64,000 nucleotides of DNA from a virus, in IMG/VR virus record IMGVR_UViG_3300013006_000024, positions 32,001-96,000 of that record, one strand, 5' to 3'. Below the pieces are notes generated by a model. The model made no database searches. It was given only the letters and a program-made list of their open reading frames with translations, and was not told the DNA's origin. The stretch's first letter is position 1. Each line of letters starts with the position of its first letter. A program made the translations under genes and the position numbers. Positions 41,801-62,967 of the stretch are shown here, in pieces.

Positions 41801-41998
41801 GCTAACGTATTTTATCTATTTAAAATATACTTTAAATATGTAAACGGAGCTATAACTAATATTAATAATTTTATGTACAAGATTAGCCCGGATGTATATT
41901 CAAATAACTTTGCATCTGTTTTATCCGACCAATACACAGCATATAACATATTAGGCAATTCATCTGTTATAAATGGGGTGTTTAACTTTAACGTATAA
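38858..41998 (+). CDS. Large baseplate/virion structural protein
   Basis: 1046 aa, late promoter 5 nt upstream, inside baseplate cluster. Confidence 0.6.
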
Positions 41999-43728
41999 TG
42001 CAAGAATATTATTTTAACTCTAATAATAAGACTTCTCTAGTTGTTATTGACAGAACAATTGATACTAGTAGAGATTATATAATAACTTTTGATTATTGCT
42101 GTTACGGTATAGGTTTAAGCGGTTTTGAAGGGTTTAGCTTATGTTTTGTTGATAATCAGGTTGCTAATTTTTACGGTGGCGGTATTGGACCGGGGTTAGG
42201 TGTAACTGCTCTTACCGGAATATCAGCACTACCGCCTCTCTTTATACCGTACTTCAAAAAATACCCAGGTATTGATAAAACACATTTTGTTATAGGGTTT
42301 GATGTTAGTGGTAACTTTGGTGCGGATATTTATGCTAGAGGCGGCAATAGCACACCCCTACCTAATACAATTTCTTTAAGGAGCGGCACGCGTGATCAAT
42401 TTAAATTGCTCTATACAACTGCAAACTTAGCTAGTTCAGCTTTTTCAGAGCCTATTAATTTATATGAGCAATCTACAACTGGTGATAATTTTAAAACATT
42501 TAGAGTTCGTATTACTAATCTCGGAAAAACAGTTGTAATCGATCATAAAAATAAAACTGCGGAAAAATTTACTAATGTTCTTAGGTATGATTTACCAGTT
42601 AGTGTACCTTCTACTGTCTTTCCTGCAATAGGATTTGGAGCAGGTAATAATATATTATTTCCTACGAATTTACGAATTAAAAATATTAATGTTAATGGAT
42701 TTTTTCTAACCCCTACCCCGACACCTACTATCACACCTACAAATACTGTTACACCTACTATGACAGTAACACCGACGGTAACACCAACAATTACCCCGAC
42801 AAATACACGAACGCCAACAGTAACCCCGACTAATACACGTACACCAACTATCACACCAACTATTACACCTACAAATACAGTTACACCGACAATAACACCT
42901 ACAGAAACTGTAACACCAACAATAACACCTACAGAAACTGTAACACCAACAATAACACCTACAGAAACTGTAACACCAACAATAACACCTACAAATACAA
43001 TTACACCGACAATAACACCTACAAATACTGTAACATCTACTCCCACAGTAACGCCAACACTTACACCTACTATTACCCCTACAGCTTCAATAACACCAAC
43101 AATTTCGCCAACTAATACACGTACACCGACTCTAACACCAACCAACACTATTACTCCTACAATAACACCTACAAATACAGTTACAAGTACTGTTACACCT
43201 ACTACAACTGTTAGCCCCTATATACGTAACTTTAATTCTAATCAATCTAATATCGTTATTCCACGTGGACCGGCTAGAGCTAGCGTCTATCCTATAACAT
43301 TCTCTGCTAATACAACAATTGCTCCTTCGCGAGTTACAGTATCACTTAACAACTTCAGTCATAGTTCACCTTATGATATAGGCGTGCTACTTGTTTCGCC
43401 TAATAATATTAATAGTTTGGTTGTAGGTAGAATACCGGATAATGACGACCCGCAGCCTGCAGTAAATGCATATGTTACTCTTGACAGCTTAGCACCTGTG
43501 CCTTGGAATGCATATTCTTCAGGCACATATGCTCCTAATTACGATCCAGATAAGACGTTCCCGTTCGCTTCACCTGCACCTTCTGCGCCGTATAATTATG
43601 TACTAGATGTATACAATAATATTTCTGCAGTCGACGCCACTGGCACTTGGAATCTATATATTTACGATTTCGTACCAGGCGATTCCGGTACACTTACAAG
43701 CGCGACATTGAGTTTTATATATAGTTGA
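41998..43728 (+). CDS. Virion protein: L-type-lectin-like domain + mucin-like Thr/Pro stalk + P-domain-like (proprotein convertase) C-terminal domain
   Basis: EGFSLCF...GPGLG...[10 protein letters not shown] lectin-like pattern; ~170-aa (T-x)n tract; [23 protein letters not shown]...GTWNLYIYD...DSGTL. Confidence 0.72.
42709..43218 (+). repeat. Thr/Pro coding tandem repeat (12- and 30-bp units)
   Basis: e.g. aataacacctacagaaactgtaacaccaac x3 at 42891-42980. Confidence 0.9.
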
Positions 43729-43731
43729 TGA

Positions 43732-43760
43732 TTGATTTCTATGTATATATAATATAAAAT
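43732..43760 (+). promoter_or_regulatory. Sigma70-like promoter heading the glycosyltransferase cassette
   Basis: TTGATT-17-TAAAAT, 6 nt before GTG 43767. Confidence 0.55.
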
Positions 43761-43766
43761 ATATAC

Positions 43767-60058: not shown

Positions 60059-60131
60059 TCGCCTAGGTCAGACTCGAACTGACACTTGAACGATTTTAAG
60101 TCGTTTTTCTCTGCCATTGGAATACTAGGCG
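60059..60131 (-). tRNA. tRNA-Leu(TAA) with short variable loop
   Basis: CGCCTAG/CTAGGCG-A acceptor, AACGA-CTTAAAA-TCGTT, 5-nt variable loop CAAGT, GTCAG-TTCGAGT-CTGAC. Confidence 0.85.
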
Positions 60132-60139
60132 AATAGATA

Positions 60140-60289
60140 TTATGGGTATTTGTAGATTTTCTTACCCCTTTTAACTGTATAGTTCCGTATTTCTTTGTTT
60201 TCTTTTGATGGCCAATTAATAACATCAAAATTCTCTTTAAATTGTTTACTAAAACAGTTTCTCGGTTTATCGCCTTTACCTGCACTCAT
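60140..60289 (-). CDS. Small basic phage protein (49 aa); not in ORF track
   Basis: MSAGKGDKPRNCFSKQFKENFDVINW...; ends 8 nt before tRNA-Leu; resembles GKGxxPR small phage proteins. Confidence 0.65.
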   Translation of the reverse strand: MSAGKGDKPRNCFSKQFKENFDVINWPSKENKEIRNYTVKRGKKIYKYP

Positions 60290-60348
60290 CTTATAAGTTT
60301 AACCTTATTTATTTAAAAAATCCATAAATAATTTATAAGGCTTTTAAA

Positions 60349-62967
60349 ATGAATAGGATTACGTATTTATCTGGCGGAACTACAGTTATTTCATTTCAAG
60401 GCTATAATTTTGAAAATACAAGATTTGTTTATCTAAGTACTACTAGTGATAACGCTCAAGCATACAATAATGTAGTTGTTGACTTTTTTCCAGGTTCATC
60501 TCTATACCCTGCTTTTACAGGGTTTAAGTATTTTGACTACACATTAACAAATAATATCTTAACGTTAAATGTTTCTAATTTATCTGGTGGGGGGTATTAT
60601 GATGTTATTATTTTTAGTAATGCAGGGTATGCTAAACTATCAGATAGTAATTTGTTAATTAACGCACAGATAGGACCATATGTTATACCTACACCGACAC
60701 CTACTGCAACTATAACACCTACAATTACGCCAACTATTACAATAACACCTACAATTACGCCAACTATTACAATAACACCTACAATTACGCCAACTATTAC
60801 AATAACACCTACAACTACACCTACTGAAACGGTTACACCTACAGTAACACCAACCGTTACTAGAACGCCTACGCTTACACCGACTATTACACCTACAAAT
60901 ACTATTACACCTACTGTAACAATAACACCGACAATAACACCGACAATAACACCGACAATAACACCCACAATAACACCTACACAGACTATTACACCGACGG
61001 CAACTATAACACCTACAATTACACAAACAGAGACTGTCACACCTACTATAACACCAACTATAACACCTACTATAACGATTACAAGATCATCTACACCGAC
61101 TATTACACCTACAAACACTATTACACCTACAAACACTATTACACCTACTGTAACAAGGACACCCACAATTACACCCACAATTACACCCACAATAACACCT
61201 ACTATAACGATTACAAGATCGCTTACACCTACAACAACACCTACACCTACTGGTACACCAACTACAACAATTACACCTACAGAGACAGTAACGCCTACCA
61301 TTACACCTACTATCACCCCAACTATTACACCGACAAGTACAACAACCCAGACTACAACACCGACTACTACTGTTACGCCTACAACCACTTTAACTGTTAC
61401 GCCTACTAGAACGCCAAAACCTACAATTACACCAACAAGAACACCAACAAGAACCCCTACTAATACAGCTACACCAACAGTTACGCCAACAACAACGCCA
61501 ACTATTACACCTACTATTACTAAGACACCTACAAATACTCCTACTCAATCTATTACACCTACTCAATCTATAACGCCTACTAAAACAGTTACACCAACCA
61601 TGACGCCTACTAAAACAGTTACACCAACCATGACGCCTACTAAAACAGTTACACCAACCATGACGCCTACTAAAACAGTTACACCAACCATAACGCCTAC
61701 AATAACACCAACGGTATTTGTCTTTAATGTATTTGATGAAGCTAAAAATTACGTTACACCAACAGTAACACCTACTGTAACACAGACAGCAACAATTACA
61801 CCTACAACAACCCATACAGCTACACCGACAATTACACCCACAGAGACTGTCACACCTACTATAACACCAACTATTACGCCGACAGAAACAGTAACACCAA
61901 CTATTACGCCAACAGAAACAATTACACCTACTATTACACCTACAGAAACAATTACACCTACTATAACACCGACTCAATCTATTACGCCTACGCAGACCAC
62001 AACACCTACAATCACACCTACTGTTACTGTAACAGTTTATCTATCACCTACTCCTACTATAACTATTACGCCAACCGAGACGGTGACACCTACAGTAACG
62101 CCAACTGAAACTGTAACTCCGACTGTAACACCTACAGCAACGCCAACAGAAACTGTAACTCCGACTGTAACACCAACTATTACACCAACAGAAACTGTTA
62201 CACCGACTGTAACACCAACAATTACAATTACGCCTACTGAAACTGTTACACCGACTGTAACGCCTGAAGCGACATCCACAGTTACACCTACAGCTACACC
62301 GACAACAACAATTACTCCAACTATAACACCGACTATAACTGTTACACCGACTGTCACACCGACAATAACACCAACAAAATTTATATTCAATGTATTTGAT
62401 GAAGCTAAAAATTACGTTACACCAACAGTAACACCTACTGTAACACAGACGGTCACACCAACTAATTCATTAACACCAACAGTTACACCTACAGTTACGC
62501 CGACAGAAACAGTTACACCAACAATAACCATATCACCTTCTAATACAGTTACACCTACTAGAACACCTACACCGACAAGAACACCGACAATTACACCCAC
62601 TAATACCAGTGTACCCACATTTACTTCGCAATATACATACACATGCCCAGTACCGCCTAATTTAGCTTACCAACCATCCGCTAGTGCTCCCACTTACGTA
62701 GGAGTACAGTTCCAAGGATTATGCTCACCAGCACCTGTAACAAAACTAGGTATAACTGCTGATAGATTTTCTTCCGGGTTTGGCGCACTTTACTGTTATT
62801 TTAATGGTGTAGCCTCGTGTGTAATAAAGAAGGACACATATCTATCTAATAGTAATATATTTTATGTAATATTTAACGGTGATGCTACACAGACTAAGTA
62901 TTATGGTAGATTAACACCTAGAACATATTATTACTTTGTAACTGGTGGTAAATATTGGCCAGTTTAA
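60349..62967 (+). CDS. Virion protein with ~640-aa mucin-like Thr/Pro stalk between a small beta-rich N-domain and a Cys-containing C-domain
   Basis: 872-aa ORF; upstream CATAAATA; (T-x)n tract 60688-62619. Confidence 0.75.
60688..62619 (+). repeat. Long Thr/Pro coding tandem repeat with internal 62-bp exact duplication
   Basis: 30-bp units such as acgcctactaaaacagttacaccaaccatg repeated ~4x (61571-61690); 61726-61787 identical to 62389-62450. Confidence 0.92.

Follow-up and report, generated by a model that had tools for sequence, protein, structure and literature searches.

A GT60 glycosyltransferase cassette among Thr-Pro-rich baseplate-module genes of an uncultured lake phage: a predicted O-glycosylation system

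Gene organization of the locus

The phage is uncultured and lake-derived, and the window (the whole 64-kb stretch of DNA analysed, to which coordinates refer) carries a cassette of enzyme genes located inside its tail and baseplate genes. All eleven open reading frames of a preliminary description, made from the DNA letters and their translations, were found on the plus strand at their coordinates: seven contiguous, mostly coupled transferase genes at 43767–51631 (junctions -4, -4, +3, +30, -13 and -4 nt), bracketed by Thr-Pro tract genes at 41998 and 51651 and followed by two more at 58464 and 60349. Directly upstream and co-oriented lie a gp6-like baseplate wedge gene (phrog_219, 7e-42) and two large baseplate-region genes of 1,154 and 1,046 aa (33529..41998, plus strand; PKD domain). 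Two structural-module genes between the second and third tract genes (53525..58464, plus strand; 1,115 aa, and 534 aa with an NHL repeat) are kept in related phages. The cassette is embedded, co-oriented, in a baseplate/fibre gene array in which phage glycosyltransferases adjoin structural genes. No transmembrane or signal-like segment was found in the cassette or tract proteins.

The four tract proteins, PT1 to PT4, contain (T-P-T-x)n tracts with a combined length of 1,172 residues, of which 44% are Thr, 19% Pro, 10% Ile and 8% Val; the preliminary description had estimated roughly 1,000 residues, about half of them Thr. No Thr-Pro tract was found beyond these four genes in the 64-kb window. 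It is Thr rather than Pro that dominates and recurs with strict periodicity; Pro occupies every fourth position. The tract DNA consists of degenerate tandem repeats with periods of 12, 30 and 60, and its C-rich codons account for a strongly negative GC skew and for spurious minus-strand open reading frames over the tracts.

PT1 (41998..43728, plus strand, 576 aa) consists of an N-domain (residues 1–235), a 189-aa tract and a C-terminal beta-sandwich with a weak match to the proprotein-convertase P-domain; its start and the stop of the upstream 1,046-aa gene overlap. PT2 (51651..53516, plus strand, 621 aa) has an N-domain, a 219-aa tract and a C-terminal domain. PT3 (58464..59285, plus strand, 273 aa), whose start overlaps the stop of the gene at 56860, carries a 91-aa N-proximal tract and a C-terminal domain. 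PT4 (60349..62967, plus strand, 872 aa) has an N-domain of about 125 aa, a 673-aa tract broken twice by one repeated short non-tract segment, and a C-domain of about 80 aa. PHROG and Pfam searches returned no structural annotation for PT1–PT4; gene position and synteny in the baseplate/fibre module suggest that they are virion proteins, and all four are candidate substrates of the cassette.

The GT60 enzyme and its partners

The first cassette gene (43767..45008, plus strand) encodes a soluble glycosyltransferase affiliated with family GT60 (PF11397; E 7e-70, with a score of 236.7 bits where the cut-off is 21), and PF11397 was likewise recovered in a search of the phage's own genome. The protein also matches phrog_24687 (4e-166) and was predicted to have no transmembrane or signal segment. 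A DxH-type motif (D89-S90-H91, DSH) is kept by 90% or more of the 37 diverse homologues compared, among which W98, D99, E201, E202 and H226 are invariant; H226 is a candidate for the third metal ligand. The AlphaFold2 model (pLDDT 96) has a GT-A fold followed by a C-terminal beta-domain (about residues 320–413), and its top PDB folds are exclusively mucin-type ppGalNAc-transferases of family GT27 (E about 1e-10). Profile searches and structure prediction, both named as checks in the preliminary description, thus agree with its assignment of a GT60-like DxH enzyme related to GT27. Membership in GT27 itself was rejected, with no GT2-type or ricin lectin Pfam match, no PDB sequence match and no hydrophobic segment. 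Characterized GT60 enzymes form GlcNAc-alpha-1-O-Thr on Trypanosoma cruzi mucins (PMC9472816, PMC3769586), and polypeptides are the acceptors of all of them (PMC9472816). By analogy, the phage protein is proposed to be an initiating polypeptide O-GlcNAc-type transferase. Our literature search found no paper linking the GT60 family to phage proteins.

The last cassette gene (49313..51631, plus strand) encodes a TylF-type sugar O-methyltransferase (residues 33–204; PF05711, 1e-24, 87 bits, cut-off 23) fused to a dual GT-A enzyme (residues 222–772), the latter comprising an HtrL_YibB domain (4e-17) and a further GT-A domain. The earlier reading of this gene as a TylF, HtrL/YibB and GT-A fusion was correct: the AlphaFold2 model (pLDDT 86) contains two GT-A domains, with best Foldseek matches to LARGE1, Mimivirus R699, COLGALT1, LH3 and K4 chondroitin polymerase. 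Invariant residues, candidates for the acidic metal motifs, are D135 in domain 1 and E376-D377-D378 in domain 2. The second domain bears a faint likeness to DNA-glucosylating glycosyltransferases (phrog_842, 1e-3; Pfam TAGT, 0.095, not significant). The dual GT-A part is kept in 68 of 80 GT60 loci, often directly adjoining GT60. The conserved core, newly described here, consists of GT60 and a two-domain GT-A enzyme, which enclose a variable set of genes.

These variable genes are all on the plus strand. The gene at 45005..45979 encodes a putative GT-B glycosyltransferase (GT4-like), a weak assignment (GT1-family model PF00534, 1.6e-4, below the curated cut-off), with a counterpart in none of the 80 related loci. 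The product of 45976..46800, previously labelled GT-A DxD, has no Pfam match and is a putative GT-A glycosyltransferase; language-model atlas features match viral clusters at 0.96–0.97, some with GT8 or GT6, which provides a GT8/GT6-like lead only (counterparts in 7/80 loci). The GT10-like label was upheld for 46804..47715, which contains a fucosyltransferase-family C-terminal domain (PF00852, 1.2e-13) and has counterparts in ten of the 80 loci. The earlier GT47/90-like label for 47746..48696 is weak, like the GT4-like one: the putative glycosyltransferase has no Pfam match and only a Glyco_trans_1_2/GT90/RXYLT1-like lead from language-model atlas matches of 0.95–0.97 (19/80 loci). The SAM methyltransferase at 48684..49316 was recovered as described and affiliates with the rhamnosyl O-methyltransferase/CmcI family (PF04989, 1.9e-7; 31.5 bits, cut-off 23.2); its match to the NCBIfam rhamnosyl O-methyltransferase equivalog (7e-9) lies under that model's cut-off. 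Counterparts occur in 18 of the 80 loci.

Elsewhere in the window, an accessory gene at 8583..9419 (plus strand) encodes an RmlD-like NDP-4-keto-6-deoxyhexose reductase (PF04321, 1.5e-22), and a 4,6-dehydratase is encoded outside it (G000:C1:102179-103147, minus strand; PF16363, 2.5e-73). Both the dehydratase and the 4-reductase of a 6-deoxyhexose pathway are encoded in this record, which is 49% complete. NDP-sugar epimerase-family genes occur in three of five complete GT60 phages. Together, the GT10 and sugar O-methyltransferase families and the 6-deoxyhexose genes are consistent with the proposed elaboration by deoxy-sugars and methyl caps.

Co-occurrence of GT60 and Thr-Pro tracts

Tracts were scored with the strict pattern (TPTx)2TPT. 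It was present in 22 of 35 GT60-selected IMG/VR records, including all eight that are at least 90% complete, and in none of 28 random records (Fisher p = 3e-8); in the reverse direction, GT60 was present in 15/34 tract-selected records (at least 45 kb) versus 1/28 random ones (p = 3e-4), the controls being small sets (28 random records) of roughly matched length. The reversed pattern gave no matches in nearly all records searched, which excludes a chance origin of the tract pattern. Phages with GT60 and tracts come from three or more lineages. Between these, the tail sheaths show little or no detectable relationship, yet the GT60 proteins are 63–68% identical, so that the pairing goes beyond shared ancestry. 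In close relatives, GT60 is directly preceded by one tract gene, and another follows the cassette. In bacteria from many phyla, a Thr-Pro open reading frame lies within 10 kb of GT60 in 30 of 80 loci, and about 13 of those 30 are within 300 bp, compared with about 0.9 expected under uniform placement.

The sister phage G041 (complete genome), whose sheath is 54–58% identical, shares the tail/baseplate synteny. Its PT1-like and PT2-like genes adjoin, and it carries neither tract nor cassette. Its homologue of the PT1 N-domain lacks the tract, the homology stopping exactly at the tract start, and a distant, tract-free homologue of the PT2 N-domain occupies the syntenic position. G041 is therefore a natural double negative.

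The coupling is strong but not obligate, since GT60 is missing from five complete phages that carry tracts, and the available sequence of one or two records with GT60 contains no tract (G016, 86% complete; G089, 67% complete). In G039 (35% complete), the syntenic fibre module has tracts and the cassette is absent at that site. The co-occurrence to which the preliminary description had looked is thus borne out in several lineages, in phages and in bacteria. A random distribution of cassette and T/P-rich proteins, which it had named as grounds against its reading, is contradicted by the overall association, exceptions such as the five tract phages without GT60 notwithstanding. The statistical link, its recurrence in several lineages, the G041 double negative and the bacterial adjacency are new here.

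Proposed function and alternative explanations

We consider it likely that the cassette O-glycosylates, in the cytoplasm, Thr-Pro stalks made by the phage itself, and thus the phage probably sugar-coats its own appendages. The substrates would be the (T-P-T-x)n tracts of its baseplate/fibre-module proteins. The soluble GT60 enzyme would start by placing a HexNAc on tract Thr, most probably alpha-GlcNAc taken from the host's UDP-GlcNAc. The next sugars may then be added by the conserved dual GT-A partner, and the GT10-like, GT-B-like and GT8/6-like enzymes and the two sugar O-methyltransferase-family domains could elaborate and cap the glycan, with 6-deoxyhexoses probably supplied by the phage's 4,6-dehydratase and RmlD-like reductase. 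The outcome may be extended, hydrated, protease-resistant stalks that keep distal domains off the baseplate. What the preliminary description observed is confirmed; its interpretation along these lines is partly supported, and it survived all computational tests able to refute it.

Phage glycosyltransferase clusters are often interpreted as remodelling host glycans (e.g. PMC12801897). Applied here, the cassette would act on LPS, capsule or S-layer, for instance in a superinfection block or progeny release, or on some other target, the tracts being unglycosylated linkers and the co-occurrence reflecting shared habitat or module inheritance. HtrL/YibB is named for an E. coli gene of the LPS-core region, and five complete phages have tracts but no GT60. 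Such a role is nevertheless unlikely: the cassette lacks membrane proteins and has neither a priming transferase nor a flippase or polymerase; it sits co-oriented inside the baseplate/fibre array; GT60 and tracts are associated across unrelated phage lineages and adjoin in bacteria; and characterized GT60 enzymes all use polypeptides. Host polypeptides might instead be the acceptors, with GT60 acting during infection on Thr-Pro tracts of surface or secretion-system proteins. Bacteria have their own GT60 beside Thr-Pro proteins, and host substrates may therefore exist; against this, more than 1,100 tract residues are phage-encoded beside the enzyme and G041, without the enzyme, is also without tracts, so that we regard this as quite improbable.

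Neither a hydroxyproline route nor DNA-base glycosylation found support. The Gnt1 branch of GT60 is a soluble cytoplasmic Hyp-GlcNAc transferase. The phage enzyme is likewise soluble, Pro is every fourth tract residue, and glycosylation might be directed to hydroxyproline rather than Thr after prolyl hydroxylation; little probability attaches to this, as the PF13640 prolyl-hydroxylase-type domain was not found in the available 105 kb of the phage or in five complete GT60 phages, and Thr, not Pro, is periodic and dominant. Hypermodification of phage DNA, through glycosylated hydroxymethylated bases, is a common role of phage glycosyltransferases, and the second GT-A domain faintly matches beta-glucosyl-HMC alpha-glucosyltransferase (1e-3) and a TET-associated glycosyltransferase (at a non-significant level). 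It is extremely improbable here: the thymidylate-synthase/hydroxymethylase family is absent from the available 105 kb and from four of the five complete GT60 phages, Tet_JBP is absent from the 105 kb and four complete GT60 phages (a search without positive control), the GT60 fold matches polypeptide transferases, and the tract association is left unexplained.

Relation to known systems

The proposed glycosylation of the phage's own stalks has a partial precedent in mycobacteriophages, whose glycosyltransferases, as summarized in PMC12619734 (citing Freeman et al. 2023), decorate their own structural proteins by O-glycosylation in the bacterial cytoplasm. That summary locates the glycans on the C-terminal ends of the subunits that form capsid and tail tube, whereas the candidate sites here are hundreds of internal Thr-Pro repeat residues of fibre/baseplate-module proteins, and the initiator would be a GT60 enzyme.

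The cultured phages XacN1, Xoo-sp13 and RAS14 all possess GT60, the dual GT-A partner and Thr/Ser/Pro-tract proteins. In the Xanthomonas jumbo phage XacN1, GT60 is ORF334 (46% identical), ORF330 is the orthologue of the dual GT-A partner (42% identity, 1e-162) and ORF372 and ORF370 are Thr-Pro proteins. Differently from our phage, the XacN1 genes lie outside the fibre module, near replication genes, and the gene after its GT60 encodes a carbamoyltransferase. A 2018 paper reported at least two Schiff-positive glycoprotein bands from XacN1 virions, which the authors did not assign to proteins, naming neither the glycosyltransferase family nor the tracts (PMC5852040). The preliminary description had known of no mucin-type pathway in a T4-like phage; since XacN1 virions stain as glycoproteins, a GT60-bearing phage with glycoproteins in its virion is not entirely new to the literature.

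The protist GT60 enzymes (T. cruzi TcOGNT1/2, Dictyostelium Golgi pp-alphaGlcNAcT and Skp1 Gnt1) share PF11397, the DxH-type motif and the GT-A fold with the phage protein. The acceptors of characterized enzymes are Thr-rich mucin-like repeats, and the candidate acceptor in the phage is a Thr-Pro tract nearly identical to the PTVT repeat of Dictyostelium PsA. In contrast to them, the phage enzyme is soluble, anchor-free and from a bacterial virus, and has its own C-terminal beta-domain; its partners are methyltransferases and a dual GT-A enzyme, in place of Gal/Galf extension. Animal GT27 ppGalNAc-transferases, which act on dense Thr/Pro repeats, are the best structural match and share the DxH metal motif and the arrangement of catalytic and C-terminal beta-rich domains; the phage GT60 differs in having no sequence-level membership and in not being a Golgi type II membrane protein.

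The two tandem GT-A domains predicted for the dual GT-A partner have their best fold matches in the bifunctional dual GT-A enzymes LARGE1, E. coli K4 chondroitin polymerase, PmHS2, COLGALT1/LH3 and Mimivirus R699. On dystroglycan, LARGE1 lengthens an O-glycan carried by the mucin-like domain. Sequence identity to these enzymes is 8–11%, and a different arrangement of the domains keeps the TM-scores low (about 0.25).

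Phage and gene array

The IMG/VR record (105 kb, estimated to be ~49% complete), of which the window represents positions 32001-96000, derives from a large contractile-tailed phage, since a tail sheath, tube, tape measure and gp6-like baseplate wedge are encoded in the window together with a DnaB-type helicase, a primase, a clamp loader and the large terminase. The sequencing runs containing this DNA are lake-water metagenomes, and a relative with 95-99% identity was present in a separate study four years later. Lake water may be the habitat, an assignment that rests on runs of which two are possibly the source sample. 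A probable tail-associated lysin of 683 aa is encoded 3' of the tape-measure region (28420-30471); its residues 64-168 form an L-alanyl-D-glutamate peptidase-like domain.

All genes from 33529 (baseplate wedge) through 59285 share one orientation, their junctions measuring -13 to +38 nt. The eleven ORFs of the preliminary description were found in place: seven enzyme genes (43767-51631) lie co-oriented between the tract protein genes PT1 (41998-43728) and PT2 (51651-53516), as described, and PT3 (58464-59285) and PT4 (60349-62967) follow. The sole sizeable gap in the array (59286-60348) separates PT3 from PT4 and contains two small minus-strand ORFs (59726-60025 and 60022-60285). TAAATA / TATAAATA motifs at 33035, 38847, 51640, 53512 and 62993 resemble T4 late promoters and are located 11-13 nt 5' of several structural-gene starts. 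Co-timing of GT60 with the late genes was not retained, the search for TAAATA-like motifs having yielded just the TATAAAATA variant before this gene. Four contigs of a lake-water metatranscriptome map without errors to PT1 (42718-43300) and GT60 (44487-44636); they were not counted as expression because DNA carry-over is possible. Contig joints linking the PT1 and PT2 tracts were discarded as repeat cross-mapping.

Thr-Pro tract proteins

The four candidate substrates PT1 to PT4 contain (T-P-T-x)n tracts of 189, 219, 91 and 673 residues. These 1,172 residues, 44% Thr and 19% Pro, bear out an earlier estimate of roughly 1,000 repeat residues, about half of them Thr, and no further ORF across the 64-kb window has such a tract. 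The DNA encoding the tracts consists of degenerate tandem repeats with periods of 12, 30 and 60 nt. The PT4 tract is broken twice, at approximately residues 440 and 715, by a near-identical short non-tract segment (11 + 11 residues), which suggests a large internal duplication. A 1,154-aa baseplate-region protein (35385-38849) is tract-free in the window, whereas its orthologues in the comparison phages G039 (L164:2704-8394) and G046 (L167:2780-7984) carry 254-345 tract residues; tracts have therefore been gained and lost within orthologous structural proteins.

The GT60 enzyme

The product of 43767 affiliates unambiguously with PF11397/GT60 (7e-70, Pfam) and with phrog_24687, 'glycosyltransferase' (4e-166). 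The DxH motif (D89-S90-H91) is kept, and W98, D99, E201, E202 and H226 are invariant in an alignment with 37 diverse homologues. Its structural homology was inferred by fold search, since phmmer against the PDB sequences gave zero matches. The best solved-structure matches of the AlphaFold model (pLDDT 96) were human GalNAc-T2, T4, T1, T10, T12 and T7, fly PGANT9 and Toxoplasma GalNAc-T3, all of them initiators of mucin-type O-glycosylation. Family, motif and predicted ppGalNAc-T-like fold thus concur with the initial GT60 call. Protist GT60 enzymes are established to form GlcNAc-alpha-O-Thr on Trypanosoma cruzi mucins (PMC9472816, PMC3769586). The homologues of this protein form 4,429 clusters at 50% identity; among them are giant proteins of 1,300-2,461 aa (P0127, P0128, P0132, P0134 and others) in which three or four GT60-like stretches follow one another.

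Composition of the cassette

Three further gene products were assigned to families in agreement with their first labels (GT10-like, SAM methyltransferase and TylF+HtrL/YibB+GT-A fusion). By Pfam, a GT10 C-terminal domain is present in 46804, 48684 is a member of the rhamnosyl O-methyltransferase/CmcI family, and 49313 combines TylF, HtrL_YibB and one further domain. Residues 222-772 of the 49313 product were modelled as two tandem GT-A domains, the best fold matches being bifunctional dual GT-A enzymes (LARGE1, Mimivirus R699, COLGALT1, LH3, K4 chondroitin polymerase and heparosan synthase). The label GT4-like for 45005 is backed at most by a sub-threshold GT1-family match. For 45976 and 47746, first labelled GT-A DxD and GT47/90-like, language-model leads were obtained, and searches of Pfam (E up to 10) and NCBIfam returned noise only. 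The cassette had no megablast match among GenBank phages. An NDP-hexose 4,6-dehydratase and an RmlD-like reductase encoded elsewhere in the same genome are consistent with the deoxy-sugar character suggested by GT10 and both methyltransferase families. Outside the window and far from the cassette, a GT2-family glycosyltransferase (E 1.4e-6) is located at positions 2504-2974 of the whole record (G000:C1:2504-2974).

Among 80 related loci, the only constant members were GT60 and the dual GT-A protein (68/80), often adjoining, with either gene first. In a subset of loci the dual GT-A part carries a fused TylF domain, and each of the middle cassette genes occurs in 0-19 of the 80. The distribution is that of a conserved putative initiator and first extender accompanied by diversifying genes for the predicted outer glycan.

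Association of GT60 with Thr-Pro tracts

Co-occurrence of GT60 and threonine repeats in related phages, proposed earlier as a check, was found in both directions. A strict DNA pattern encoding TPTxTPTxTPT was present in 22/35 GT60-selected IMG/VR records (including all 8 with a completeness of 90% or more) and in 0/28 control records of at least 30 kb picked by an arbitrary 14-mer (Fisher test, p = 3e-8). The pattern undercounts: it misses Stenotrophomonas phage RAS14, in which no fewer than 12 T/S/P-tract ORFs are present. Conversely, PF11397 was detected in 15/34 tract-selected records of at least 45 kb against 1/28 controls (p = 3e-4). The bearers of both features fall into three groups: window-like phages with sheaths 50-66% identical, jumbo phages whose ~1,100-aa sheaths are alignable in the C-terminal third only, and five complete phages with undetectable sheath homology. 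The pairing, as predicted from these genomes, is a property of more than one clade. GT60 is 63-68% identical across these sheath-divergent groups and has therefore moved between lineages, its bearers in those groups having tracts.

Relatives whose GT60 reaches 70% identity or more have one tract gene adjoining GT60 upstream and a second one after the cassette. G041, a complete phage of 229 kb from the window's own lineage, is without cassette and without tracts, and its tail module is gene-for-gene syntenic. Its homologue of the PT1 N-domain stops exactly where the PT1 tract starts, and a PT2-like gene comes directly next with no cassette between. The exceptions are five complete tract-bearing phages without GT60, two incomplete GT60 records without a tract, and G039, which has tracts and no cassette at the syntenic site.

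Bacterial GT60 loci, from Gemmatimonadota, Acidobacteriota, Verrucomicrobiota, Proteobacteria, Bacteroidota and Actinomycetota, have a Thr-Pro ORF within 10 kb in 30/80 cases, ~13 of these within 300 bp of GT60 versus ~1 expected.

Proposed function

Enzyme families, predicted folds and the GT60-tract co-occurrence argue for the mucin-type pathway first proposed for this phage, and the five complete tract phages without GT60 speak against it. The proposal is partly supported overall, with good backing from comparison, and we consider it probable that the cassette O-glycosylates the phage's own Thr-Pro stalks in the cytoplasm. Membrane or signal-like segments were absent from the seven enzymes and the four tract proteins. 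Remodelling of host glycans is disfavoured by the lack of a membrane-associated step among the cassette proteins, the placement of the cassette inside the fibre module and the association of GT60 with tracts.

Glycosylation of DNA bases by the cassette found no support: the hydroxymethylase family PF00303 occurs in 1/5 complete GT60 phages and is absent from the 105-kb record, and a search run without a positive control found no Tet_JBP (PF12851) in the record or the complete GT60 phages searched. A hydroxyproline route for GT60 likewise lacked support, no prolyl-hydroxylase-type domain (PF13640) being present in the record or in five complete GT60 phages. An extension of stalk glycosylation that we regard as unlikely, prompted by the modelled fold, is that the dual GT-A partner acts as an alternating polymerase. 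Each GlcNAc-O-Thr primer would then be elongated by it into a chain of repeating disaccharides, giving proteoglycan-like bottle-brush fibres in phages and bacteria sharing the gene pair, with strain-specific caps set by the variable glycosyltransferases and methyltransferases; such chains would be a prokaryotic-virosphere analogue of matriglycan.

To our knowledge, the mucin-type O-glycosylation pathway has so far been known from eukaryotes only. Virion O-glycosylation in phages is established in mycobacteriophages, according to work cited in PMC12619734. In the literature on GT60, PF11397 and glycosylated tail fibres, we found no paper that associates phage proteins with GT60 or with Thr-Pro tracts. 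New here are the random-record controls, the double negative of G041, the core of GT60 and dual GT-A protein, the deoxy-sugar genes and the connection to Xanthomonas phage XacN1. If stalk glycosylation holds, numerous large phages of freshwater and soil, as well as bacteria of many phyla, would possess such a pathway, acting within the bacterial cytoplasm on defined repeats. Phage appendages would be pictured as glycan-coated stalks tens to >100 nm long, with bearing on host range, protease and grazing resistance and phage recognition. It could account for hundreds of phage 'hypothetical glycosyltransferases' in tail modules and would offer a compact set of soluble, genetically encoded tools with which mucin-like glycoproteins could be produced in bacteria.

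Cultured relatives

The bacteria of two loci are cultivable and possible test systems: a Ralstonia sp. chromosome (L517:12270-15131) and an Achromobacter MAG (L521:15052-17535) encode proteins of 830-950 aa with pure (PT)n of ~130 residues, a few kb from a GT60 homologue.

The cultured phages XacN1, Xoo-sp13 (Xanthomonas) and RAS14 retain the pair of GT60 and dual GT-A protein, XacN1 ORF330 being 42% identical to the window partner. In all three, GT60 is directly followed by a carbamoyltransferase gene (in XacN1 ORF333, 765 aa, L083:13409-15706), which hints at carbamoylated, not methylated, glycans in Xanthomonas and Stenotrophomonas jumbo phages. XacN1 ORF372 (1,088 aa) contains two long TPTx tracts, and a further tract is present in ORF370. 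XacN1 virions contain at least two Schiff-positive glycoproteins, for which the authors suggest the phage's two glycosyltransferases as makers, naming neither the stained bands nor the family (PMC5852040). The question is directly testable in this cultured phage, which combines the gene pair with tracts and with glycoprotein bands that have already been observed.
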